Source: Dictyostelium discoideum (taxonomy: Eukaryota). Taken from it: a DNA stretch of 64,000 bases. Numbering within the stretch: position 1 is the first letter of the stretch; the number at the start of each line of letters is the position of its first letter. Under the pieces are notes generated by a model. It saw nothing but the letters and a program-made list of their open reading frames with translations, was not told the origin of the DNA and did not search any database. The stretch covers positions 6,400,001 to 6,464,000 of the forward strand of contig CM000151.3 of NCBI GenBank assembly GCA_000004695.1. Reading direction: 5' to 3'. Position numbers and translations under genes: made by a program. Shown in pieces: positions 1,716 to 64,000 of this stretch.

Positions 1716-3027
1716 TTAACAAAAATTAATTAAATTTCTAATTTCTGGGGTAGTATTAACTGGTCTAATACATATTTTTTCAACCTTTACAATGAACTCA
1801 TTCCAATTTTCATTACCCAAATCGAAATCTGAATTACTATTGATTAATGGAGTTGTAATTTGTTTTTGTTGTTTTTGAGAAACAAATGACATTGAAAAAG
1901 ACATCATTTTGAATGATTGTGATATTTGTTTTTTTAATTCATTAAAATCGGCAACACTTGAAAGATCAATTGTTTTACTTTCGCCACCTTCAATTGAACA
2001 ACAAACATTGTTTACAGTTTTTTGTTTTTTTGTTGGTGATGAAACTGGTGAAATTGTAGTAGTTGTTGGTGATGGTGATGTTGATAATGATGATGAGTTG
2101 TTATTATTATTTAAATTTTCAATCTTTTTTTCAAAATCAATATCACAATCACTATCAATATTAAAACCATAACTGAAATTTGAATTTATATTGTTATTAT
2201 TATTGTTATTATTGTTATTGTTATTGTTATTATTATTATTTTGAAAAGTTGGGGTTGTTGATCTTGTTGTTGTAGTTGTTGTGGTTGTTGTTGGTGGTGG
2301 TGGAATATTATTTGGTTTGGTTTGTGATGGATGATATTGTTGTTGCATATGTTTTGATAATATACTATTATTTAAATTATTTATATTTAACATATTAATA
2401 TTTGAATTTGCATTATAAAATTGTGGCGGATAAGTAATTGATTGTTGAGATTGTTGAATATTAAAAGGTGCTTGATTATTAACAAAACCATTAACGGTTG
2501 CCGATGGCTTAAAAAATGAAAAAGGTTCAGGTTTAACAATTTGTTGTTGGTTATTTACAAAGGTATTGATTGAGGTACTGTATCTTTCGTCCAAAGGGTA
2601 TTCGGTTGCTAACCTTTTTTTATTATTATTATTTACAGATGTAGAAGTTGTAGTGGTTCTACTATTACCATAGTTGTTATTATTGTTGTTAAAACTGTTG
2701 AAACTGTAATAACTCGATGATTGGCTATTCAAGGATGCTCTACTTGCCATATTTAAATAAGTTATATAATTTAATTCTTCAAAAGTTGGTTTTTTTTGTG
2801 GACCTAAAAAATAACAAAAAATAAAAATAAAAATCAATTAATAATTTTAATTTAATAATTTAAATGATTAAAAATTTTAATACTTACTAATATTTGAATT
2901 TGAATTTGAATTATTATTATTGCTATTACTATTATTATTATTATTATTATTGTTATTATTATTGGTATTATTATTGTTGTTATTATTATTATTATTAGAA
3001 TTATTATTATTATTATTATTATTATTA

Positions 3028-3072
<45 letters not shown>

Positions 3073-4154
3073 GAGTTATTATTATTATTATTATTATTAT
3101 TATTTTCATTTATTTTAGTATCGAAATCATTTTCATCATAAATTGAACCCATTGGAGAAGAAGGAACAGTTGGACTATCATATGATGATGATTGGGACTT
3201 ATAATCAGAATCAGAACTGAAAATATCAGGAGATGTATAATCTTGTTGGGTAGAGTATGGCGATGCCTTTTTTTCATTGGATGGAGTTGGATTTGAATAA
3301 CTATTGAATGTAGGAATTGGAGTTTGTCTACTATTTTGTTGATTACCAGTGACTGGTGCAGTTGTTGTTTGATAATTAAAGTATTGATTGTATAATGGTT
3401 GATTAGTTGGTATCGATTGTCCTTGTGACAATTGGAATAAGGTTTGAGATGATGTAATATTTTGGTTACCTCTATTTTGTGAATTATTGTTATATGTTGA
3501 TGAAGATGATGATGATGATGATGACGATGTCGATGATGAAGAAGAAGAAGATGATGATGAATCATCTGATGTAAGTGTAGATGTTGGAGATGAAATGGCA
3601 GAACTATTCGTTGAAGATGATGAATTATGTAATAAGCTTGAACTATTAAAATTAAAATGAGTACCAAATGGTGATGGTTGAATACTTAAAGAAGTTGGAG
3701 TTGAAGAAGCACTTGGAATTGGAGATGATAATGATAAGGTACTAATATTCATATTTGAATTATTATTATTAATATTATTGTTATTGTTATTTACATTTGA
3801 TGAACCAGGTGAGCATAATGATGGTGTTGAACTATTTGAAGATGGTGAGAATGGTCTTGGAAAATATGGTTGAAAGAAATTATTTGAACCTGGGAAGGGT
3901 GGATTTAAATCTTCTTTTTGTGTAACTTGAATAATAATCTTATCACCTTGTCTAATGTATGGAATATCGGACTTAATAAAATTCTCTTCAATATATGAAA
4001 TATTTGTACCCAATCTTTCATGATTATTTGCAATCCATTCACCCAATGCAACATTTACCAATTTAACATGATTTAATGCGACCAATCCATGAAGTGGTGA
4101 AGAGTTACCATTTAAATTTGGTGAAGATATTGGTGATGGTGGTGATTGTTGAAA

Positions 4155-4226
<72 letters not shown>

Positions 4227-4742
4227 AATATTATTATTGTTATTATTATTATTACTCAATTTTGTATTAAAATCAGATGTAATTCCAATATTAAAATTAG
4301 AATTTTGTTGATTTGTCAAAATATTATTAATATTATTGTTATTGTTATTAATATTATTAATATTATTATTATTATTATTATTTAATTGTATTATTGATGA
4401 TTGAGAGCAATTTTTTAATTGATTATTGTTAATTAATTCGTTATTATTATTATTATTATTATTTTGAACTGATTTTGACCAATTTATAGAATGAAATGAA
4501 CTTAAACGAGTTTTTGATTTTTCGGATATTAACAAACGGAAACCTTGATATTTTTTGGTTAGACGATTAAATCTTCCACGAAGAGTTGACAAATTAACAT
4601 GAAACAAAGCGGCTAAGGTTCTATCTGGAAAATAAATTGGCTCGTTTTCGGAATTACAAAAATATTGGATTTGAGAGATTTCTCCAGTATTTGATAATTC
4701 AATGTCAAATTCTTTGACATAATATTCTCTATGTTTTTCCAT
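1716..4742 (-). CDS. Large low-complexity (poly-N/S/T/Q) protein of unknown function. 2 exons: join(complement(2888..4742), complement(1716..2803)), about 979 aa.
   Basis: ORFs 2877..4742 and 1716..2837 join via a minus-strand GTAAGT donor (plus 2882-2887) and a tttttAG acceptor (plus 2804-2805), giving an 84-nt intron with phase 1 kept (A+GT = S). ATG is at 4742. The N-terminal 90 aa (MEKHREYYVKEFDIELSNTGEISQIQYFCNSENEPIYFPDRTLAALFHVNLSTLRGRFNRL) and a mid-protein block (GLVALNHVKLVNVALGEWIANNHERLGTNISYIEENF) are non-repetitive and probably globular. Confidence 0.6.
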
Positions 4743-5872
4743 TTTTTATTTTTATTTTATTTTATTTAATTATTTTAATTTTTTTTTTTTTAGATTGAAA
4801 GGAAATTGACCAAAAATTAAGGAAATATATAACTTCGAGAAAGTTTAATAAAAATCAATAGTGATTAATGGTGGAGTCGTGGATTTAAAAAAAAAGCACG
4901 TGAGTTTTTTTGTTTGGTAAATAAAAAATAAATTTTTTTTTTTCCTTTTACTTGTAACTTTTTTTTTAAAAATAAAAATAAAAATAAAAATTAATATTTA
5001 TTTATTTTTGTATACAAATAATAAATTATTTTAAATTTTGGGGTGTATTAAAGGATAGTTAATAGTGTAGTAGGGGAGATTTGTAGGAGAAAAAAAAATA
5101 TGTGGGTGGTGGGGTAATAATGGTGTTGTTTTTTTTTAATTTTTTTGTTTTTTTTTAATGTTATGTGGAAAATACTACTACTACTACTATTGGGTACATA
5201 TTAAATTTTTAAAAAATCATATTATCAGATCAATATATTATAATATCAATATAAAAAAAAAAAAAAATAATAAAAAAAAATTTTATTTGGGGTGTGTAAT
5301 AAAAAAATAATTGCAATTATTATACAGAAATATGGATAAATTAAAAAGCCTTGCCAACCCAAATAAAATTTTGAAAAAAAAAAAAAAAAAGAATTTGATT
5401 GATTTTTAATTTGTCATATACAAACAATAACAATAATTCAACCAACATAATAAAAAGTATAACAATAACACAACAACATAAAAACGAATAAATTATTATT
5501 ATAATTATTTTAAATTTTTTTTTTTTAATGACGTAAACAACAGATTTTAGTTTTTTCATTTTTTTAATGGCGTTGTTTGTGTGGTGTAGTGTGGTGTGAT
5601 GTGGGAGTGGGAAATTTTAAAAAACAGAACTTGTTTTTTTTATTTATTATTTATTTATTTATTTTAATTGATTTTTTTTTTGGCCTATTTAATAAGTACA
5701 ATCAAAAGAAATTGGATACATTTATAATATGGTAATATTGAACCACACTATTCAAATGAATAGTTTTTTTAATTAATGCAAACAACATCTAATATTTCAA
5801 AAAAAAAAAAAAATAAAAAATAAAAAATGAAAAAATAAAAATAGGAATTAGATAAAAACAAAAAACAAAAAA

Positions 5873-16900: not shown

Positions 16901-17307
16901 TTTTAAGGAGAGGGAAAAAAAAAAAGAAAAAAAAAAAAAAAAAAAAATTAAAGAAATCGTATGATATTTTCATATGATATGTATATAGTGTATAAAATGT
17001 AATCTAAAAAAAAAGGTGTACTATTATTATTATTTGTTGTTTTTTTTTTTTTTATTGTTTAATATATTTCAAAACTTTATTTTTTTTTTTATAAATTGAT
17101 TTATTTAATAATTCTTTTTTTTTTTTTTTTTTGTGTGTATACATTTTAATCACTCGTAATATTATATTACTATATTCTATATTTTTAAATATTTAATTTA
17201 GTTTTTCTTGACTAAAAGTTCTTTTTGGAGTAATTCTGAATTTAAAATGACTAAAGTTTTTTGTATGGATTTTTTATATTTTAAAATAAAAAGGAGTGTT
17301 AATAATA

Positions 17308-17544
17308 TTATATTTGAGTGTGATGTGGCGTTATATTATGATAATAATAAATAATAAATTTGTGATAATTACTGGTTGATGATTCTTTGCCATTTTGGTA
17401 CATGACAGTATTTGAAATGAAACCTTCTCTATTTTTAGCAGCAGCTCTGAATGGTTCTTTTAAACAATTACGGACATGAGTACCGCAAATGTTAGCGTAT
17501 TGTAAATAAGTGATACCAGCAGCTCTCCAATATTGACCAGCCAT
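17308..17544 (-). CDS. atp5e: Mitochondrial F1Fo ATP synthase subunit epsilon (ATP5E / yeast Atp15 homologue).
   Basis: [38 protein letters not shown] aligns with human ATP5E ([34 protein letters not shown]). [13 protein letters not shown] resembles the yeast Atp15 tail (YTQYKNGTAASEP). The 78-aa ORF is longer than its homologues (51-62 aa), so the C-terminus may be modified by an unrecognised 3' intron (possible GTAATT donor). Confidence 0.75.
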
Positions 17545-22562: not shown

Positions 22563-24587
22563 ATGATTTCTTTAATTAAGAAATCAAATAAAAATTTAAT
22601 TTCAAATACTAGTTTAAATTTAATAAATAGATTTACAACTACAACTCCAACTCCAACAACATCAACATCAAATAATAATGAAATTATTAAATCAAATAAA
22701 TTTATAAATATTTTTAGATCAAATTTATTTATACCATTTCAAAATGATCAAAAGATTGGTAGTGATATGTTAGAGAGTCAATTATTAATGCAAAAAGGTG
22801 GATTAATTAGAAGATTATCAGCAGGTACATATTCAACTTTACCATTAGCTCAAAAGGTTATGGAAAATATAATAAAGATAATTGATGAAGAGATGGAAAA
22901 AGTTGGTGGTCAAAAAATGTCAATGCCAAAAATGTTACCAAGAGAACTTTGGGAAAAAACTGGTAGATGGGATTCAGCAGGTGACGATTTAATAAAATTA
23001 AAGGATAGAAAAGGTGAAGAGTATTGTTTAGCACCAACTCATGAAGAGGTTATAACAACCATAGTTGCCAATGAGTCATTGTCAAATAGTAGTTTTCCAA
23101 TTAAATTATATCAAATCGGTGAGAAATATCGTGATGAGGTTAGACCAAGATTTGGATTATTAAGAGGTCGTGAATTTACAATGAAAGATATGTACTCTTT
23201 CGATACAAGTAAAGAAGCTGCTGAAATCACCTATTATCAAGTTAAACAAGCCTATCATAACATTCTTGAAAGATTAGAATTACCCTATGCTTGTGTTGAA
23301 GCTGATTCTGGTAATATTGGTGGTAACATGTCTCACGAATTTCAAGTATTAGCCAATGTTGGTGAAGATTCTTTAATCTATTGTAAAAATTGTAATTATC
23401 ATGCAAATATTGAAAAAGCAAAAGGTTTACCATCAACAAATATTAAAAATTTAAAAAAACAAAAATCAATTTTAAATAAACAAATTAATCAAGAAATTAA
23501 TAATAATAACACCAATGATAATCAAGAAATTAATATAAAAATTAAAGAAATTGAAAATGAAATTAAAAATTTTAAAAATATTAAATTATCAATTATGAAA
23601 ATTACAACATTACCTTCAAATTCTGATAAAGAAATTGAAGAAATAGCTCTCATTATAAATAAATTAAATGATAATTTTAATCAATATAGTATTAAACCAA
23701 ATTATAATGATATTAAACAAACTCAAGTTTTATCACCTGAAGAATATAAAAAATATCGTTCAATTATTATGAAAGGAATTGAAAGTAAAAATGTTGATAA
23801 TAATAGCGATAAATTATTATCATTTGAAGAAATTATTAAACATAAATTATTTATTGATGGATCAGTTGAATTTGATGAAGAATCAATTTATAAACCATTG
23901 AAATCATTATTAAAGAAATTATTAAAGAGAGATTTAAGTAGAAAAGATGATTTGATTTTATCAATGAATCGTGGTCAAAATTTCAGAGAAGCTATTAAAG
24001 GTGATCTTTGTGTACAACCTGTTTGTGATGGTAAATCATTATTGGATACAAAGAGGGGTATCGAAGTTGGCCATATTTTTTATTTAGGTACTAAATATTC
24101 TTCAAAATTGGGTGCTTATTATACTGGAGCTGCTCAACAAAGAATTCCATTGGAAATGGGTTGTTTTGGTATTGGTGTATCACGTTTATTAGCTACTATT
24201 GTTGAAACTTTTAGTAAGGAAGAAACTGGTTTCATTTGGCCACAACAAGTTGCACCTTATCAAATTATCATTGTTCCAAAACATCTTAAATCTCAATTAT
24301 CACTTGCTGAATCAGTCTCTGAACAACTTCAAACTGAAATTCCATATTTAAAATCACGTATTATCATTGAAGATCGTTCTAAAGCTCATTTCGCTCAAAA
24401 AGTTTTAGAATCAAAATTCATGGGTATTCCTTACTTTTTAGTAATTGATAATAATAATAAATCAATTGAACTTGGTGAATCATCAACAAAAGTTAATTCT
24501 TTCAAAATTGAATATAAATCTGAAACTCCAACTTTAATTCAAAATCAATTTGATTTAATTAATTATTTTAAAAATAAATTTAATTAA
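22563..24587 (+). CDS. Prolyl-tRNA synthetase, bacterial/mitochondrial type (class II aaRS, PARS2-like), 674 aa, single exon.
   Basis: Class II motifs and ProRS blocks are present: GGLIRRLSAGTYSTLPLAQKV, LAPTHEEVIT, FRDEVRPRFGLLRGREFTMKDMYSFD and a C-terminal anticodon-binding region. An N/K-rich insertion interrupts the catalytic core. The N-terminus (MISLIKKSNKNLISNTSLNLINRFTTTTP) looks like a mitochondrial presequence. Confidence 0.9.
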   Translation: MISLIKKSNKNLISNTSLNLINRFTTTTPTPTTSTSNNNEIIKSNKFINIFRSNLFIPFQNDQKIGSDMLESQLLMQKGGLIRRLSAGTYSTLPLAQKVMENIIKIIDEEMEKVGGQKMSMPKMLPRELWEKTGRWDSAGDDLIKLKDRKGEEYCLAPTHEEVITTIVANESLSNSSFPIKLYQIGEKYRDEVRPRFGLLRGREFTMKDMYSFDTSKEAAEITYYQVKQAYHNILERLELPYACVEADSGNIGGNMSHEFQVLANVGEDSLIYCKNCNYHANIEKAKGLPSTNIKNLKKQKSILNKQINQEINNNNTNDNQEINIKIKEIENEIKNFKNIKLSIMKITTLPSNSDKEIEEIALIINKLNDNFNQYSIKPNYNDIKQTQVLSPEEYKKYRSIIMKGIESKNVDNNSDKLLSFEEIIKHKLFIDGSVEFDEESIYKPLKSLLKKLLKRDLSRKDDLILSMNRGQNFREAIKGDLCVQPVCDGKSLLDTKRGIEVGHIFYLGTKYSSKLGAYYTGAAQQRIPLEMGCFGIGVSRLLATIVETFSKEETGFIWPQQVAPYQIIIVPKHLKSQLSLAESVSEQLQTEIPYLKSRIIIEDRSKAHFAQKVLESKFMGIPYFLVIDNNNKSIELGESSTKVNSFKIEYKSETPTLIQNQFDLINYFKNKFN

Positions 24588-48690: not shown

Positions 48691-50078
48691 ATGACATTAG
48701 ACCCATATTCAGGATCAGTCGATTGCCGTGACTGGAAGAAATCAGCAATTAAAAAAGCTATTGAAGATGGTATATTTAAAGAACATGACTATGTAATGCT
48801 TTATAATCTTGACGAATTCAGAGCACTTGCCAAAGAAGCCTGCGACAACTTAAAAGGATTACAAACTATGGCAGTTAAATGTAATCCAGTTATGAGCTTA
48901 ATGAAAGAAGCAATTAAAGCTGGTCTTGGTGCTGAAGTTGCTTCATTTGGTGAATTAAGAATTGCAGAAATAGCTGGTTTTGAACCATCTGTAAGTATTC
49001 CAAAAATTTTTAATTCTTTTAAAATAAAAAAAAAATAAAAAAATAAAAAAATAAATCCTAATTTTTTTTTTTAATGAAAAAGAAAATTATATTTGATTCA
49101 CCAATTAAAACAAAAAAAGAATTAGAATATGCATTAAATTTAGGTGTTGTAATTAATATTGATAATTTTGAAGAATTAGAAACTATAGAATCAATTGTTT
49201 CAAAATTTTCAAAGGAAAAATATGAAAGTCTTTCGTTGGGTATTAGAGTGAATCCACAAGTTGGAGCAGGTAAATTAACTGATCTTAGTACAGGTGTACC
49301 AACATCTAAATTTGGTATTGGTATTGAACATAAAGATAAGATCATCGATGCCTATGTACGTAACAAATTTTTAAAGGGAGTTCATATTCATGTTGGATCA
49401 CAAGGTTTTGAAATTTCAAATATATCAGAATCTGCAGTTAAAGTTATGAATTTAGTGAAAGAGATTAATGCACGTGATGATACAAAATCTCAAATTACAT
49501 TCTTTAATATGGGTGGTGGTTTATCAGTAAACTTTGAATCAGAAGAGACTTCACCAACTTTCACTCAATATGCCAATCACATGAAACAATTATTACCAGA
49601 ATTATTCAATGGTGAATTTTTATTGATTACCGAATTTGGTCGTTCCTATTGGGCAAAATGTGGTGTCGTAGTTTCAACAGTTGAATATACAAAATCAAGT
49701 GGTGATCGTGAAATCGCAATTTGTCATGCCGGTGCAAATATGTACATTAGAACCGTTTATCAATTCCCATTGTGGAGAATTAGAGTAACCATTTTCGATT
49801 CAAATGGTGAATATAAAACTGGAAATGAAAAAATCACAGATATCGCTGGTCCTTGTTGTTTTGCCGCTGATGTTTTAGTAAAAGAAAGATTATTACCACC
49901 AATTAAAAAAGATGATTTCATTATGGCACATGATAGTGGTGCTTATATGCTTTCAAGTTATTCTCATTATAATTTAAGATTAGCTCCACCAATTTTCTCT
50001 TTTAATACCACAAATAATACAATTGAATTAATTAAAAAAGGTGAAACTATTGAAGATAAAATTAATTTCTTTTCTTAA
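48691..50078 (+). CDS. Fold-type III PLP-dependent decarboxylase of the Orn/DAP/Arg decarboxylase family, most like diaminopimelate decarboxylase (LysA). 2 exons: join(48691..48990, 49083..50078), about 431 aa.
   Basis: Donor TCT|GTAAGT (48991) and acceptor tttaatgaaaaAG (49081-49082), phase 0. LysA-like motifs present: IRVNPQVGAG, HIHVGSQ, GGGLSV, EFGRSY (EPGR), GPCCFAADV (GPLCESGDV), HDSGAY, SSYSHYN. Confidence 0.8.
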
Positions 50079-50282: not shown

Positions 50283-52161
50283 TTAAAAAAGATCAGAAAT
50301 TAAATCTTTTGACGATGGTTTACAATTTTCAGGAATATCAAATGAAGCAATGATTTGTTTTGAAACTTTGGTAACTTCAAAACAAAGATCTTGAATTAAG
50401 AATGGGATTGATTGAGCAACATTTGGTGAGATTAAGTGATTTGAAACGAACCAACCTAAATCTTCTTCAATGGAGACAAGAGCGTCCAACATAATTAAAT
50501 GAGCTAATGGTTTAACGTTTTTAAGTTTTAATGTATTGATAGAGTTTTGGAAAACGATTTTAGTCATGTGAGCAAAACCTAATTTGACAGCCCATGGAAT
50601 TGCATTGTTAAAAGCGAAATAAGCAGGTTCTTTAGAGTTGCTAATGATTTGTTTTAATTCGGCCAAACGAATCTCTTCTCTAGTTTCAAATAATTGATTA
50701 ATATTTGAAAAATTGAATAATAACGATTTGGCATCTTCACCATCTAAATAGATACGATTGGTAGTGGTATTTGTTTGTTTTTGTTTTACACCTAATAAAT
50801 ACTTGGCCAATTGTTGCATGAGAACAGTATTATCACCTTCATATGTACAAACGATATCACAATCATTTTTAAATTCAGCTATACGATTTGCTGAACGGTA
50901 ACCTTGACCACCACAAGCTTCACGACAAGTTTGGAGTGCTGCAACACAGAACCAACTGTAAACTGCTTTGATACCTGAGCAATGGGCATGGATTGAAGCT
51001 GGTAATTTCTCTTGACATAATTCATTGGTTAAACGTTGAATGTAAAGATCAAACAAGATGGTTCTTGCCAATGGTGCCATAAGACGACGTTGTTGTGAAC
51101 TGAGAGTAATCAATGGAAGCTCATTATTTGCAGATGGACCAAACTGTTTTCTAATATGTGAGAATTCAATAGCAATAGAGAGGGAGGTTTTGGCAGCACC
51201 TGAACAACCTTTAGTGATTGCCATTCTACCAACAATGAATGGTGCCATTGTTGCAGCGAAATTCTTTATTGGTGTATTGAATTGACTCTTGTAAACACCG
51301 TCTTCGCTAACATCACTATATTTGTTTAAAAGGTTCTCTCTTGGGATACGAACTTGATCGAAACGAATTTGACCATTATCAATACCATTCAAACCTAACT
51401 TATGACCACAATCTTTAATGGTGATACCTTTCATGATTGCACCACTCTTTGGACAACGAAGTGGTACAACCAATGCATGAACACCATAATTTGTACCATC
51501 AATGATTAAGTTTGCGAAAACAGTAGTGTAGGTAGCATGAAGATAAGAACCACCAATCCAAAACTTTTCACTTGTTGGTGTTGGTGAATGAATGATAAAC
51601 TCTTTAGTTTGTTTATCGTAATGTGCAGTAGTTTCAATACCACGAACATTTGAACCATGACCAATCTCTGTCATTGCAAAGCAACCCATTGTCTTGAGGG
51701 TATTAGCATCTTCAATATATTTCTCATGTCTTGAGGTACCTAAAAACATGATTGTACCTCCAAATAATGTATAATGAACACCCAATTTGGTACAAACATT
51801 GTTATTATACAATGAAAACATTTCTACAACACCAGCATATCTGTGAAGGTTATTCTTAATATCAGTCAAATGAATTAATCCACTATTTGCAACAGCAACA
51901 CATTGTTCAAGTACTAATTGTCTATAGGTAGCCATATCCAATCCAATGAAATTCTCTTTGAATTTTGGATGATTTCTAATGAATTCTCTTGCTGCATCCT
52001 TATATTTACTTGCTTCAACTGAATCAATTAATAATTTTAATTCTCCAACATTTATATTTGCATCAATTGAATTAAATAATTCTTTTTCTAATACTTCATT
52101 TTTATTATTTGTTGTTTGACTATTAACATCTAAATGTTTTTTAATCTATATTATATATATG

Positions 52162-54071: not shown

Positions 54072-55950
54072 TTAAAAAAGATCAGAAATTAAATCCTTTG
54101 ATGATGGTTTACAATTTTCAGGAATATCAAATGAAGCGATAATTTGTTTTGAAACTTTAGTAACTTCAAAACAAAGATCTTGAATTAAGAATGGGATTGA
54201 TTGAGCAACATTTGGTGAGATTAAATGATTTGAAACGAACCAACCTAAATCTTCTTCAATGGAGACGAGAGCATCCAACATAATTAAATGAGTTAATGGT
54301 TTAACGTTTTTAAGTTTTAATGTATTGATAGAGTTTTGGAAAACGATTTTAGTCATGTGAGCAAAACCTAATTTGACAGCCCATGGAATTGCATTGTTAA
54401 AAGCGAAATAAGCAGATTCTTTAGAGTTGTCAATGATTTGTTTTAATTCGGCCAAACGCATCTCTTCTCTAGTTTCAAATAATTGATTTATATTCGAAAA
54501 ATTGAAAAATAACGATTTGGCATCTTCACCATCTAAATAGATACGATTGGTAGTGGTATTTGTTTGTTTTTGTTTTACACCTAATAAATACTTGGCCAAT
54601 TGTTGCATGAGAACAGTGTTATCACCTTCATATGTGCAAATGATATCACAATCATTTTTAAATTCAGCTATACGATTTGCTGAACGGTAACCCTGGCCAC
54701 CACAAGCTTCACGACAAGTTTGGAGTGCTGCAACACAGAACCAACTGTAAACTGCTTTGATACCAGAGCAGTGAGCATGGATTGAAGCTGGTAATTTCTC
54801 TTGACATAATTCATTGGTTAAACGTTGAATGTAAAGATCAAACAAGATGGTTCTTGCCAATGGTGCCATAAGACGACGTTGTTGAGAACTGAGAGTAATC
54901 AATGGAAGCTCTTTATTTGAAGATGGGCCAAATTGTTTTCTAATATGTGAGAATTCAATAGCAATAGAGAGGGAGGTTTTAGCAGCACCTGAACAACCTT
55001 TAGTGATTGCCATTCTACCAACGATGAATGGTGACATTGTTGCAGCGAAATTCTTTATTGGTGTATTGAATTGGCTCTTGTAAACACCATCTTCGCTAAC
55101 ATCACTATATTTGTTTAAAAGGTTCTCTCTTGGGATACGAACTTGATCGAAACGAATTTGACCATTATCAATACCATTCAAACCTAACTTATGACCACAA
55201 TCTTTAATGGTGATACCTTTCATGATTGCACCACTCTTTGGACAACGAAGTGGTACAATAAATGCATGAATACCATAGTTTGTACCATCAATGATTAAGT
55301 TTGCGAAAACTACAGCATAGGTAGCATGAAGATAAGCGCAACCAATCCAAAACTTTTCACTTGTTGGTGTTGGTGAATGAATGATAAACTCTTTAGTTTG
55401 TTTATCGTAATGTGCAGTAGTTTCAATACCACGAACATTTGAACCATGACCAATCTCTGTCATTGCAAAGCAACCCATTGTCTTGAGGGTATTAGCATCT
55501 TCAATATATTTCTCATGTCTTGAGGTACCTAAAAATATAATTGGACCTCCAAATAATGTATATTGAACACTCAATTTCGTTAAAATATTATTATTATACA
55601 ATGCAAACATTTCTAAAGCGCCTATATATCTGTGAAGGTTATTCTTAATATCAGTAAAATGAATTAATCCACGATTTGCAATTGCAGCACATTGCTCAAG
55701 TACTAATTGTCTATAGGTAGCCATATCCAATCCAATGAAATTCTCTTTGAATTTTGGATGATTTCTAATGAATTCTCTTGTTTCATCCTTATATTTACTT
55801 TCTTCAACTGAATCAATTAATAATTTTAATTCTCCAACATTAATATTTGTATCAATTGAATTAAATAATTCTTTTTCTAAAACTTCATCCTTATTATTTG
55901 TTGTTTGACTATTATTAACTTCTAAATGTTTTTTTATCTATATTATATAA

Positions 55951-56943: not shown

Positions 56944-57319
56944 TTATTTATTTAATTTTTTTAAATTTATTGGTAAAATTTTAGAAAATATAGAAATTGT
57001 TGGTTTACTTTTTGAATTTATTCTTGAATTTACATTTTTCAAATAGTTTAAAAGATGATGTTCATCATATTTAATAATTCTTTTTCTTGGGGAAAGATCA
57101 ATTGTTGATAAATATTTTGCCAATGGTTTTGGATGATATTCAACTAAATGTTCTAAAATATGACTATGTCCTCTTGAATAAGATATTGAAATATGTTCTT
57201 TAGTTAATGGTAATGATAATGGTGATACAAATATCATTGACGATAATCCATTAATTGATAAATGAATCGGACTTGATGGTGATGATGAAATTTGTTGTTG
57301 ATTTTTTGTTGGTGATAAA

Positions 57320-57357
<38 letters not shown>

Positions 57358-59818
57358 TGTTGGTGATGATGAAATTGAATTTATTGGTAAAATTGGTAAA
57401 TTTACTGTTGGTATTGATGATGATTGGATTGGTGAAGAGGAAGAAGAAGGAGATGAAGAAGATGAAGAAGATGATGAAGATGAAGATAAAGAAATTGATG
57501 AAGTTGATAGTGAATTTGAAGGTATCATTATTGGTGAAACCTTATTACTCATTGATGGTGAAGAAATACTATTGATATTGTTATTATTGTTATTATTATT
57601 ATTATTAATTGATAAAGTATGATAAATTGGTGGTGGAGATGATGAATTTGGAGTACGTGGTGTAGTTGAACCACTTGGTTGTAAACAATATTTTATAATA
57701 TCTAAATAACCATAATTGAAAGCAGGTTTTAAAATATGAGAAAAATCTAAATTAACAGATACAGTTCTTGATACAACATCTTTAAAATATTTTAAAGTTG
57801 TAAGATCACCAGCTTCACCAATTGCAATCATTGTTGCTTCTGTGATTTGTACATCTCTTGGACAATATTGTTCGATAATATATTTAACAGTATCAAAACA
57901 AGTACCAGAGATAGCATTGATTAAAGCTTGTTCAGTACACCCTTCAGTCCTATTCTTTTGAAGGAACTGAATGACATCTAAATTACCATTGGAAGCAGCA
58001 TTGTTAATGGCCGCTTTACTACAAGGTTGGCCAGAATTATGTAAAAACTTGACCATCTCTAAATCACCCAAATAAGCTGCATTGCTAACGGCCCTACTTG
58101 TAGCTCCTTCAGTACGATGATTCAATAGATAACGTACCACCTCTTCATGACCATTATAAACTGCTTTATCAACAGCATCGGTTGTACAATGTGCAGATGT
58201 TCTATTCTCTGTTAAATATTTAACAATTGATAAATGACCATTTATAGCTGCCTTATCAATTGCATTACCGATGGATAACGTTTGGTCCAATTCATTTAAA
58301 TATTGAACGATTTCAAAGAAACCACTTGCAGATGAAATTTCCATACCACTACAATAGGATTGAGGTTGTAGATAAAAAGGTTCACCACCAAATATAACCA
58401 AAGCTTTAATTGCTGCTAAATTATTATATATACAACAATCTGAGAGTAAATTTGGGTTGAAACCACCATCTGGTATTGGTTTCTCTTGAAGTAGATAAGC
58501 CAATAGATCAGGTCTATCAACGAATCTAACAGCAATATCGAATGCTTTAGCAGTGATTTCAATTCCCAATCTATTACGACAAACTTTAATCAATTCTAAA
58601 TTCTTATATAATAGAGCAGATGCAATGAAATCCTCATTAAAGTTTACTCTAAAGAAACCTTCGAAATCAATATTACCAGCATGAGACATATAAAATTCTA
58701 AAATTTCCAATTGACCTTTACTAATTGACAATGTGAAAACTTCAATATTATTTGGTTGATATAATGTATACAAATATTTTACAATCTCAATATGACCACC
58801 TTCAATTGCTCTTTTTGTAGCACTATACAATGGTGATTCAATATGTGAATCTGGTGCCAATACAACAGTACTTGATGATCTACCACCTCTTGGACTATAG
58901 GGTATATTAATTAATGGTGTTGTATTGGTTGGTGGTATAATATTATTTTGAATTAAATATTTTAAACAATCTAAATGACCATATTGTGCTGCTAAATCTA
59001 ATGCTTTTGACCTTTTTGGTGTTGATGGTGGTGTTGATGAATTTATAATTGGTGATGATCCATTACTATTATTATTACTATTATTATTACTACCACTATT
59101 GTTACCACTATTATTATTATTATTATTACCACTATTATTATTGATATTATTATTATTATTATTAAATCCACTGCCACCCAGTATATTACCATTATTACCT
59201 AAATTTTTATGAAGATATTGTAAAATTTCTAAACTACCATTTGAAGAAGCATGATCAATTGCAAATAAAGTACATGGTTCATTCAATTGTTGATGAATAT
59301 ATTTAACCAATTCTAAATCATTGAATGCAACAGCATTTTCCATTGCACTATCAGTGCAACCATCATTTCTATTCTCTTTTAAGAATTTCACCATTTGTAA
59401 ATTACCCCAACGTGATGCATTATCGATAGCATAGGGTGATGCAGTGTAACCTTTGTTATGTAAATAAACCACCATTTCATAATTACCATAATATGCAGCA
59501 TGATCAATTAATGTTGGATATAATCTTGGAAAATATTCAATATATCTTTCAAAACACATTTTAAAAATATTGAAATCTGGTATTGAAAATATGATTTTTC
59601 TACAAACTGATGATATTATCAAATTATGACCTTGTTGAATCTTATCTTTAATTAATCCCCAATGTTTATGATTTATCATCCATTCTAATGATATTATATC
59701 TTTATATTTTCTACTTATAACTTTACTTCCAAATCTTTTAACACCTTTAAATATTTTACTTCTAATTTTAAAATTTGATAAAATTTTTGAAAATAAAATT
59801 GAATTTTTATCATCATTT

Positions 59819-59856
<38 letters not shown>

Positions 59857-59982
59857 ATTATTATACATTTCCAACTCTTCATTTTTAATTTCTGATTGAA
59901 TTGTTGGTGATTTTAATGTTAAGATTGATCTTGATGTTGGTGAACATTCTGTAACTATTATTGATGTTGTAGTTAATGACAT
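56944..59982 (-). CDS. Protein with about 20 divergent ankyrin-like repeats (consensus ..A.d.Aa.nGhLe.vkyLhen.t.gCt..a....), N/S-rich linkers, 1012 aa, single exon.
   Basis: Continuous ORF with ATG at 59982. Repeated ~33-aa units such as AIDNASRWGNLQMVKFLKENRNDGCTDSAMENAVAFNDLELVKYIHQQ and AIDKAAINGHLSIVKYLTENRTSAHCTTDAVDKAVYNGHEEVVRYLLNHRTEG. Confidence 0.7.
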
Positions 59983-60247
59983 TTTTTTTTTTTTTTTCCT
60001 AGTTTATTGGAATTATAAAAAAAAAATAAAAAAAAAAAAAAAATTTAAGAATAAAAAAAATAAAAAAAAAATTGGAACAATTAAAAGATGTAAAAAAAAA
60101 AATTAATAATTAATTAAATAGTTTTTTAAAATAAAAAAATAATAAATAAGTTTATAAATTTATGAATAAACAATTTTTGAATAAACAATTTTTTGAATAA
60201 ACAATTTTTTGAATAAAAAAAATAAATGGTTTTTATAATAAATTAAT

Positions 60248-60249
<2 letters not shown>

Positions 60250-60310
<61 letters not shown>
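60250..60310. repeat. Poly(T) run of 61 nt. A second run of 54 nt sits at 60618-60671. Both are in the intergenic region upstream of the ankyrin-repeat gene.
   Basis: Uninterrupted T runs. Confidence 0.95.
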
Positions 60311-60312
<2 letters not shown>

Positions 60313-60616
60313 TTTTTTTGGGAGTTAGGTTTGAAATGGGTTAAAATAAAATCTTAAAAATTAAACAATTGTTTTTTACAAATGATTAATTGTTTTTTTT
60401 TTTAAAAAACAATCAATTAATGGTATTTGATTTTGATATTGATTTTAGTCTTAGACTTGAATTATTTTTTTTTTTTTTTTTTTGATTAGTTTTATAAAAA
60501 AAAAAAAACAATTAAATTTTTATTTTATATATTATTAATATGATGTAATGTTGGATGATGTTGTTTTGTAGTAAGTGTGATTAATCAATTTATAAATATT
60601 GTTATTTGTTATATGT

Positions 60617-60671
<55 letters not shown>

Positions 60672-61078
60672 CAAGGATTTAAAATAAAAATCAAATATGA
60701 GAAAAAAAAATAAAAAAAAAAAATAATAAATTTGAGGGGGGTGATTTTACCGTTATTTGAATCGTTGTTGCTATTTTTAATTCGATTGATGATGTTTGAT
60801 TATATATATGTATTGTACACAAGAAAATAAAATAAAAAAAATAATAAAAATAAATTACATTAAAATAATATTGTTTTAAAAAAAAAAAAAAAAAAATTGT
60901 TATTTTTAGTTTTTGATATTATGATTGAGTACACAAAATATTTTTTTTTTTTTTTTTTTTTTTGAAAAACAGATTTAAAACACAAATAATTGATCAATCA
61001 ATCAATAAAATAAATAAAAAAAAAAAAAAAAAAAAATTTTGATATTATAATATTTTTTTTTTTTGTAGACAGAAATAT

Positions 61079-61110
<32 letters not shown>

Positions 61111-61769
61111 TTTATTGAGGCTAAAATCACTCAGTGGAGCAGGATTATTATTTGACTGAATTTAGTTATGATACCATTTTACACAAAAATTAAAAAAAAA
61201 AAAAGAAAAAGAAAAATATAAAAAAAAATAAAAAAAAAAATTAATTTAAAAAATAAATATCTCAAATTGAGATTTTATATATTAAATTTTTGAAAAAACT
61301 AAAAAATAAAAAAAATAAAAATAAAAATAAAAAAAAAAAAAAGAGAAGAAAATTTTTATTTTTTTTTTTTTTTTTTTTTTATTTTTTTTTTTTTTTGAAA
61401 TTATTCAATTTTTTTTTTTATCTTCCTCTAACCCCCCAAATTAAAACTATATCATTTCATTTTTCACAATAAAAAAAAAAAAATTTCTAAAATCAAACAC
61501 TCAGATAGGGGCATCGTAAATTAATACTTACATAAACACATTAAATTTCATAAATTTTTTTTTTTATAAAATTAAAATCACTATATAAAAAAAAAAAAAA
61601 AAAAAAAAAAAAAGGTAAAAAGTGTTTCTATTAATATAATTTATTGTACCTAAATTAGATATTAAAAGAACAACACTCACTCACCCACACCACACATACA
61701 TACATACATACATTCAACACCACCCACTCATATAATATATATATTTAATTACTATTTTAAAAATAAATA

Positions 61770-62856
61770 ATGGGTTCAAGATTGAATCCCTCAAGCAATA
61801 TGTATATCCCAATGGTAAGATAAACTTTATTATTTTTTTTTTTAAAATCATTTACTTACTCGATGTTCATTTTTTTTATTTTTTTAAAATTTTAAAAGAA
61901 TGGACCTAGAGGTGGATATTATGGTATGCCATCAATGGGACAATTACAACATCCACTTTTTAATTATCAATTCCCTCCTGGTGGATTTCAACATTTACAA
62001 CAACAACAACAACAACAACAGCAACAACAACAACAACAACAACAACAGCAACAACAACAAACACAAGTTCAACAATTACATAATCAATTACATCAACAAC
62101 ATAATCAACAAATTCAACAACAAGCACAAGCAACTCAACAACATTTACAAACACAACAATACTTACAATCACAAATTCATCAACAATCACAACAATCACA
62201 ATTAAGTAATAATTTAAATAGTAATAGTAAAGAATCTACAAATATACCGAAAACAAATACACAATATACAAACTTTGATTCTAAAAAGTAATTACCTTTT
62301 TTTTTTTTATAAATATATATTTATTTCTTTTCTTTTTTTTTTTTTTTTTTTTTTCTTCCAAAAATCAATATCACACAAGTTTTTTTTTTTTTAATAATCA
62401 AAAATTATTTTTATTCGGCAATCGAAAATATCTAACCCATGCATATCAAAAAAAAAAAAAAAAAAAAATTAAATCAAAAAAATATCTTTTTTGTAAATTT
62501 CATTTTCCCAATATTAAAATAAAAATTAATAAAATATTTTTTTTTTATTTTTTATTTTTTTTTTTTTAAATAACCACCACTATAGTCTTGATTTAGCTTC
62601 GAGATATTTTTCAGAGTGTTCAACAAAAGATTTTATAGGTAATAAAAAAAAGGTAAATATAAAAATCTCCCATTAAATCCCCCAATACCCGTTTTTTTTT
62701 TTTTACAATATTTTTATTATAAATTAGCACACTATACATTTTAAAAATAAATTTTATTATAATATTCAAAATCATTATAATAATCAAAATAATCAAAATA
62801 AAAATAATAAAAAAATAAAAAAAAATAAAAAAAAACTAATCAATAAATTTTTAAAA

Positions 62857-62923
<67 letters not shown>

Positions 62924-63760
62924 ATAGTCAACATCAGTAGCTTGGAATGCCAATGGCACAAAAATTGCAAGTAGTGGTTCAGATGGTATAGTTAGAGTTT
63001 GGAATTTTGATCCATTAGGAAATAGTAATAATAATAATAATAGCAATAATACTAGTAGTAATAGTAAAAATAATAATATTAAAGAAACAATTGAATTAAA
63101 AGGACATGATGGTAGTATTGAAAAGATTAGTTGGAGTCCAAAAAATAATGATTTATTAGCAAGTGCAGGAACAGATAAAGTTATAAAGATATGGGATGTT
63201 AAAATTGGTAAATGTATTGGTACAGTTTCAACAAATAGTGAGAATATTGATGTACGTTGGTCACCGGATGGTCAATTCATTGTAGCATGTACACGTGATG
63301 ATCATTTAGCATTAATTGATTTACCAACTATTAAAACCTTGAAAATCTATAAATTCAATGGTGAAGAATTGAATCAAGTCGGTTGGGATAACAATGGCGA
63401 TTTAATTCTAATGGCAAATTCAATGGGTAATATCGAAGCTTATAAATTCTTACCGAAATCAACCACACATGTAAAACATTTAAAAACTTTGTATGGTCAT
63501 ACTGCAAGTATCTATTGTATGGAATTCGATCCAACTGGTAAATATTTAGCAGCTGGTTCTGCCGATTCAATCGTTAGTCTTTGGGATATTGAAGATATGA
63601 TGTGTGTTAAAACTTTTATAAAATCAACTTTTCCATGTAGATCGGTTTCTTTTAGTTTTGATGGTCAATTCATTGCTGCTTCTTCTTTTGAATCAACAAT
63701 TGAAATTGTAAGTAAAAATGAAAATGAAAATAAAAAATAATAATTTTCAAAATAAAACTC

Positions 63761-63795
<35 letters not shown>

Positions 63796-63986
63796 TTAAT
63801 ATTTCTTTTTTTTATTTTTTTTTTATTTAGTTCCATATTGAAAGTAGTCAACCAATTCATACAATTGAATGTTCAGGTGTTTCTTCATTAATGTGGCATC
63901 CAACATTACCTTTATTGGCTTATGCTCCTGAAATTAATGAAAATAATAAGGATCCAAGTATCAGAGTATTTGGATATCATTCTTAA
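61770..63986 (+). CDS. thoc3: THO complex subunit 3 (THOC3/Tex1) WD40 protein with Q-rich N-terminal extension. 5 exons: join(61770..61814, 61899..62287, 62586..62652, 62928..63707, 63831..63986), about 478 aa.
   Basis: Donors ATG|GTAAGA (61815), AA|GTAATT (62288), AAG|GTAAAT (62653), ATT|GTAAGT (63708). Acceptors aaaAG (61897-61898), tatAG (62584-62585), aaatAG (62926-62927), atttAG (63829-63830). Phases 0, 2, 0, 0 are all consistent (1437 nt). The spliced product ...TNFDSKNLDLASRYFSECSTKDFIGNKKKSTSVAWNANGTKIASSGSDGIVRVWNFD...LKGHDGSIEKISWSPKNNDLLASAGTDKVIKIWDVKIGKCIGTV...SPDGQFIVACTRDDHLALID...FDPTGKYLAAGSADSIVSLWDIEDMMCVKTF...FHIESSQPIHTIECSGVSSLMWHPTLPLLAYA...IRVFGYHS is colinear with human THOC3 (HSVAWSCDGRRLASGSFDKTASVF ... 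FDPMGKYFATGSADALVSLWDVDELVCVRCF ... TVAWHPKRPLLAF ... VKLFGLP). Confidence 0.8.
62865..62926. repeat. (AAAT)15 tetranucleotide repeat forming most of THOC3 intron 3, ending directly in the acceptor AG.
   Basis: Perfect taaa/aaat units up to ...taaatAG|TCAACA. Confidence 0.9.
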
Positions 63987-64000
63987 TATTGTTTTTTTTT

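Follow-up and report, generated by a model that had tools for sequence, protein, structure and literature searches.

Positions 61770-63986 on the plus strand of the window analysed here, a stretch of 64,000 nucleotides (nt) from Dictyostelium discoideum AX4 chromosome 2, very probably carry a single gene for an orthologue of THOC3/Tex1, split into five exons by four spliceosomal GT..AG introns and coding for a protein of 478 amino acids (aa). THOC3/Tex1 is the WD40 beta-propeller subunit of the THO/TREX mRNA-export complex. In this work, we read the region 61000-64000 of the window and rebuilt the exons from the sequence. The gene model for THOC3 is correct and routine: it describes an ordinary split gene, and our analysis confirms what was already known rather than reporting a discovery. 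As a consequence, the Gln-rich open reading frame (ORF) at the 5' end of the locus is no gene of its own, and the THOC3 propeller is complete only with a micro-exon of 67 nt.

Structure of the gene

When the five exons are spliced in silico, the joined coding sequence is open over 1437 nt and translates into 478 aa (Table 1). The initial annotation of this DNA had reconstructed the same five exons. All of its exon coordinates, phases and peptides are present in the sequence, every coordinate is correct, and the four junctions are backed by collinearity with orthologous proteins. The features described below suggest that the mRNA would be spliced in vivo along this model.

Several properties of the sequence leave little freedom in placing the junctions. 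Each of the four introns contains only two AG dinucleotides, one beside the donor and the other being the acceptor itself. Exon 3 lacks any ATG; upstream, its reading frame stays open no further than 62533. Exon 4 has a TAG (62925-62927) immediately before it, so that its frame opens exactly at 62928, and the first ATG in this frame comes only at codon 162 (63411). With two AGs per intron and no start codon in exon 3 or early in exon 4, the splice sites are nearly forced. Moreover, since exons 3 and 4 offer no usable start, the WD40 body could not be translated as a complete propeller without the upstream exons. By enumeration, we found no other frame-preserving, full-length splice model, save for an optional segment of 60 nt in exon 4.

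Base composition and codon usage agree with these boundaries. The introns contain 87-93% A+T and the exons 62-75%. This contrast is typical of Dictyostelium and supports the five-exon model; the genome-wide A+T content reported for D. discoideum introns is 89%. A codon-usage log-odds score, for which twelve further long ORFs in the window served as the training set, took positive values in all five exons but in no frame other than that of the model; in the four introns all frames scored negative.

The junction between exons 2 and 3 is where a plain ORF list breaks the gene. The Gln-rich ORF (121 aa, 61926-62291) lies in frame with exon 2, and its closing TAA (62289-62291) consists of bases 2-4 of the donor GTAA. 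The apparent stop would be part of the donor (AA|GTAA) and would hence be removed by splicing. As first proposed, AA|GTAATT at 62288 is a phase-2 donor, which joins exon 2 to the micro-exon (AA+T, completing Asn145), and the micro-exon in turn joins the WD40 body in phase 0. The claim that the poly-Gln ORF is the N-terminal extension of THOC3 also holds, as two orthologues carry N-terminus, linker and propeller in one chain.

Table 1. Exons and introns of the THOC3 gene model (positions in the window; the bar marks the exon-intron border).
Feature	Position	Strand	Length (nt)	Donor (position)	Intron sequence (acceptor end)	A+T	Content
Exon 1	61770-61814	+	45				ATG at 61770; 15-residue peptide MGSRLNPSSNMYIPM; ends in phase 0
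Intron 1	61815-61898	+	84	ATG|GTAAGA (61815)	GTAAGA...AAAAG (61898)	87%	In-frame stop at 61821
Exon 2	61899-62287	+	389				Gln-rich low-complexity region, then KTNTQYTNF near the end; ends in phase 2
Intron 2	62288-62585	+	298	AA|GTAATT (62288)	GTAATT...CTATAG (62585)	87%	Longest of the four introns
Exon 3	62586-62652	+	67				Micro-exon; completes Asn145, then LDLASRYFSECSTKDFIGNKKK; ends in phase 0
Intron 3	62653-62927	+	275	AAG|GTAAAT (62653)	GTAAAT...AAATAG (62927)	90%	
Exon 4	62928-63707	+	780				Bulk of the seven-bladed WD40 propeller
Intron 4	63708-63830	+	123	ATT|GTAAGT (63708)	GTAAGT...TATTTAG (63830)	93%	In-frame stops
Exon 5	63831-63986	+	156				Last blade; C-terminus ...IRVFGYHS; includes TAA stop 63984-63986

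Orthologues in other dictyostelids

The nearest database relative of the spliced product is P0001 (EukProt gene5365-6695_t, 433 aa), with 48% identity. A tblastn search of P0001 against positions 60001-64000 recovers all five exons unguided, the micro-exon at 76% identity. A full HMMER scan with P0001 found a second orthologue, P0130 (458 aa), whose locus lies on DF837587.1 of GCA_000787575.2; the gene occupies positions 3001-4770 of the retrieved sequence (L001). This assembly record is that of Acytostelium subglobosum (PMC4334915). Both P0001 and P0130 are collinear with the D. discoideum product from Met1 to the C-terminal FGYHS, across all four junctions.

The conservation extends to the DNA. 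Threaded on its own genome, P0130 is encoded by exons of 45, 377, 67, 90, 684 and 114 nt with intron phases 0/2/0/0/0, and all the intron positions and phases of the D. discoideum model (4/4) are common to this gene. The last intron, for instance, stands at the same position (IEI|GH versus IEI|FH between the two species). The initial annotation had regarded four introns as high for this genome. The number is indeed above the D. discoideum average, but the introns are inherited and not peculiar to this gene, because the A. subglobosum orthologue has five.

At the protein level, the N-terminal peptides of both orthologues start with M[GS]SR[LM]N (MGSRMNTNSNIFIPM in P0001 and MSSRLNPNSSMFMPM in P0130). 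A low-complexity linker follows in each, and then the pattern KxNT..YTxF...L[DE]xAxxYFxEC. P0001 has an identical KTNTQYTNF motif, for which P0130 has KANTVPYTQF. After its Ser/Thr-rich linker P0001 reads KTNTQYTNFTIKNLELATRYFSECTTKDFQGHKKKVNTVAW, and its C-terminus, IRVFGYHS, is identical to that of the D. discoideum protein; P0130 continues after its Gly/Ser linker with KANTVPYTQFKSLETATKYFTECTVKELQGHKKKVNSVSW.

Identity and predicted fold of the protein

The assignment to THOC3 made in the initial annotation is borne out by a family profile, by the best full-length relative of known structure and by the fold predicted for an orthologue. The Pfam family PF25174 (Beta-prop_THOC3) matches residues 165-459 over profile positions 2-272 of 272, with 308.9 bits (E=3.1e-92) against a curated cut-off of 305. 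Among PDB entries, human THOC3 (7znk_C, 7apk_C) is the best full-length relative aligned in a single stretch (E=2.8e-60, residues 154-470). WDR5 and the others follow at ~1e-34 or weaker, and 2ymu_A ranks above human THOC3 only by summing nine repeat matches.

The alignment to human THOC3 starts at human residue 44, within the micro-exon, and the block that precedes the propeller is common to both proteins (human TREFLAHSAKVHSVAW, D. discoideum KDFIGNKKKSTSVAW). The junction had been said to restore a conserved N-terminal block of THOC3, and it is this same block that appears in the HMMER alignment to 7znk_C. In a multi-species alignment, the block ...F...K[ED][FY].GH.K.V..V.W is common from fungi to vertebrates.

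The structural analysis was carried out on an AlphaFold2 (AF2) model of the orthologue P0001, not on the D. discoideum product itself. In this model, residues 1-117 are disordered, with a predicted local distance difference test (pLDDT) score below 50. A helix (118-126) and a beta-strand (131-136) are the equivalent of the micro-exon, and the remainder forms a confident seven-bladed propeller (pLDDT about 85-97). The top Foldseek matches of the model are again 7znk_C and 7apk_C, with a target-normalised template-modelling score (TM-score) of 0.91 and a root-mean-square deviation of 1.8-2.3. Judged by this model, the micro-exon is predicted to code for the short helix before the propeller and for the first beta-strand of the propeller. 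It would supply a conserved structural element, which explains why it cannot be skipped.

By analogy with its human and yeast counterparts, the D. discoideum protein would work in THO. A literature search on THOC3, or THO complex subunit 3, in Dictyostelium returned nothing specific. The gene may be the historical AAC-rich cDNA AAC3, described as coding for a WD-repeat protein; this equation is unconfirmed in the literature and was not used as evidence.

Alternative readings of the locus

Some observations weigh against the reading of this locus as a five-exon THOC3 gene. The cut-off of PF25174 is cleared by only ~4 bits; the Asn-rich insert encoded in exon 4 probably costs score in this match. 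In addition, the gene models of A. subglobosum rely in part on homology to D. discoideum proteins, so that their annotation is not fully independent (PMC4334915). The conserved ORF pieces, the GT..AG sites and the phases found in A. subglobosum DNA, which belongs to a genome of different composition, are nevertheless independent evidence. Finally, exon 4 contains an in-frame GT..AG segment, 63025-63084 (60 nt), that is removable in principle.

It is on this segment that a six-exon structure can be built, with 63025-63084 as a fifth short intron or an exitron and not as constitutive coding sequence. The DNA here codes for an Asn/Ser-rich insert of ~20 aa (an AAT-type repeat, 63021-63082) in a surface loop of the propeller. 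The borders of the segment, ATA|GTAATAAT...ATTAAAG|AAA, enclose 60 nt with 87% A+T. Its removal keeps the frame and gives WNFDPLGNKTIELKGH, with a loop length as in A. subglobosum, and the A. subglobosum gene has its extra intron in the same loop, at P193|K194. However, the two do not coincide in position or phase (phase 1 versus phase 0, ~2 codons apart), and 60 nt is well under the genome median of 103 nt for introns. The loop is at the surface in the orthologue model, where an insert is tolerable. We kept the segment as coding because its length is a multiple of three, it is free of stops and its AAT/AGT codons for Asn and Ser stand in frame, as in numerous genuine Asn tracts of D. discoideum. 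Overall, we consider the six-exon structure very unlikely. As to its origin, the segment could be a former intron that turned coding, or an exitron.

A milder departure accepts the same five exons and proposes that some transcripts keep intron 2, in which case the TAA at 62289 would give a second product, a Gln-rich protein of 145 aa. The stop right after the donor would make this product a clean one. Moreover, intron 2 is the longest of the gene, and its only branch-point-like motif (TCTAAC at 62431) lies 150 nt from the acceptor. On the other hand, the short product would end at a premature stop with the last junction far downstream, and no such product occurs in the protein collection searched. 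We rate partial retention, which is possible but unsupported, as very improbable.

It is extremely unlikely that the locus comprises two genes, one for a small Gln-rich protein that stops with the TAA at 62291 and another further downstream that codes for WD40/THOC3 from a promoter and start codon of its own. In favour of two genes, the ORF 61926-62291 is closed by an in-frame TAA, and the 298 nt that separate it from the following coding segment make a long gap for this genome, whose introns average ~143 nt. Against them, exon 3 offers no ATG in its short open frame, and translation from the first in-frame ATG of exon 4 would cost the propeller about two blades. Only one exon with an ATG start could be spliced to exon 4 in frame, and it codes for an 18-letter peptide. 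In both orthologues a single chain comprises the N-terminal peptide, the linker, the KTNT motif and the propeller, and A. subglobosum shares the phase-2 junction that leads into an exon of 67 nt.

The five-exon gene illustrates usefully how naive ORF scanning of an A+T-rich genome can break up a gene in which exons are short and stop codons lie embedded in donor sites. Beyond correct annotation its import is small, as this is a curated chromosome of a model organism and an A. subglobosum orthologue of the same architecture is already deposited.

The N-terminal region

According to the five-exon model, the protein would have four parts, namely an N-terminal peptide of 15 residues, a low-complexity linker, a conserved block and the seven-bladed propeller. 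The peptide would be encoded by an exon of its own and is conserved among dictyostelids; in the three species compared its consensus is M[GS]SR[LM]N[PT][NS]S[NS][MI][FY][IM]PM. The linker would be a disordered, fast-evolving stretch of low complexity, made of poly-Gln in D. discoideum. Its sequence is not conserved among the three dictyostelids. In D. discoideum it includes a run of 21 Gln (CAA/CAG) in exon 2, at 61998-62060, and a poly-Gln tract of this kind is unremarkable for the species (PMC7432833). The conserved block, KTNTQYTNF...NLDLASRYFSEC, would come next, and the part of it encoded by the micro-exon would form the short helix together with the propeller's first beta-strand.

PAM2 is a ligand motif bound by the MLLE domain of poly(A)-binding protein (PABP). 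The N-terminal peptide resembles this motif in all three species (LNPSSNMYIP in D. discoideum, MNTNSNIFIP in P0001 and LNPNSSMFMP in P0130). The PAM2 consensus, LNxxAxEFxP, calls for a small Ala at position 7 and for Phe or Trp at position 10 (PMC7356810). We rejected the membership of the peptide in this class: Ala is replaced by Ser in 3/3 sequences, Glu by Met or Ile, and Phe by Tyr in D. discoideum. Pfam gave no PAM2 match even at E<=10. It is distinctly improbable, in our estimate, that dictyostelid THOC3 gained a lineage-specific N-terminal module of peptide and linker whose PAM2-like peptide binds PABP. Were this true, the THO export complex would be physically tied to the poly(A) tail in these amoebae.

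Introns and repeats

Annotated introns of D. discoideum number about 17,300-17,500, with a mean length of 143 nt and the median given above. Intron 3 had been described as essentially an (AAAT)15 repeat ending in the acceptor. The repeat does abut the acceptor AG; it is, however, a perfect (AAAT)18 at 62854-62925, which takes up 72 of the 275 nt, or 26% of the intron. An imperfect A-rich array around it (62796-62926) accounts for 48%. The only branch-point-like motif of intron 3, ACTAAT (62835-62840), lies 88 nt from the 3' end. From there to the acceptor the sequence is A-rich, occupied by the (AAAT)18, and contains no polypyrimidine tract. Introns of amoebozoans are reported to have a poly-T peak 15-40 nt from the acceptor, and such a 3' end is atypical for them. 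As regards non-coding RNA in the introns, Rfam gave no match at the gathering threshold over the window, nor at E<=1 over 61000-64000. The tRNA search found no tRNAs.

Genomic neighbourhood

Two other ORFs of the window match AX4 proteins and place it on chromosome 2. The ORF at 22563-24587 is an exact match to the AX4 prolyl-tRNA synthetase XP_643312, and that at 49074-50078 is part of XP_643322. Neighbouring AX4 proteins have orthologues in D. citrinum, D. firmibasis and D. dimigraforme. By contrast, neither the exact 478-aa THOC3 product nor eight variants of it (among them alternative starts, read-throughs, the poly-Gln ORF by itself, another first exon and raw ORFs) occur in the collection of 15 billion proteins searched, and homology searches there gave no THOC3 from the genus Dictyostelium; since the neighbours are present, we do not take this for a missing annotation.

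Two ORFs of 552 aa on the minus strand, at 50283-51941 and 54072-55730, are 95% identical (522/552) and lie ~3.8 kilobases (kb) apart. By the motif ...GGQGYRSANRIAEFKNDCDI.CTYEGDNTVL..., they look like acyl-CoA oxidase/dehydrogenase genes, and the pair looks like a recent tandem duplication.

Between the THOC3 gene and a divergently oriented ORF of 1012 aa (56944-59982, minus strand) lies a spacer of ~1.8 kb (59983-61769) that is extremely rich in A+T. T homopolymers longer than 45 nt occur in it at 60250-60310 and 60620-60672. Near its end, 40-100 nt upstream of the start codon, there is a C-rich, almost G-free tract (61664-61732) including (ACAT)5 at 61694-61713. The GC skew of this tract reaches -0.87, and the intergenic region around it is otherwise 85-95% A+T. 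The tract may be a 5' untranslated region or a promoter element.

Comparison with known systems

Like human THOC3 and yeast Tex1, the D. discoideum protein has a seven-bladed WD40 propeller, as judged from its sequence and from the orthologue model. Compared with human THOC3, it carries ~145 extra N-terminal residues, comprising the 15-aa peptide, the poly-Gln linker and KTNTQYTNF, none of which occurs in the human or fungal sequences compared. A further difference from human THOC3 is the ~20-aa Asn-rich insert, which falls in the loop after the first WD repeat.

The poly-Gln linker and the Asn-rich insert follow the habit of D. discoideum poly-Gln and poly-Asn tracts in general, with CAA-coded Gln and AAT-coded Asn runs placed in disordered or loop regions, as seen in the orthologue model. 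Nothing sets the Gln tract of THOC3 apart from this general pattern.

Within the dictyostelids, P0001 is nearly identical to the D. discoideum protein in MGSR.N...IPM, KTNTQYTNF, NLELATRYFSEC and IRVFGYHS, whereas its linker is rich in Ser and Thr and not in Gln. The A. subglobosum protein P0130 has the same domain order (N-terminal peptide, low-complexity linker, motif, propeller), and its gene shares the 45-nt exon 1, the phase-2 junction, the 67-nt micro-exon and the place of the last intron. Unlike in D. discoideum, the A. subglobosum linker is rich in Gly and Ser in place of poly-Gln, the Asn-rich insert is absent and one extra intron interrupts the first propeller loop (P193|K194). The introns are also shorter in A. 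subglobosum, with 66-85 nt against 84-298 nt in D. discoideum, and the identity between the two propellers is only 40%.

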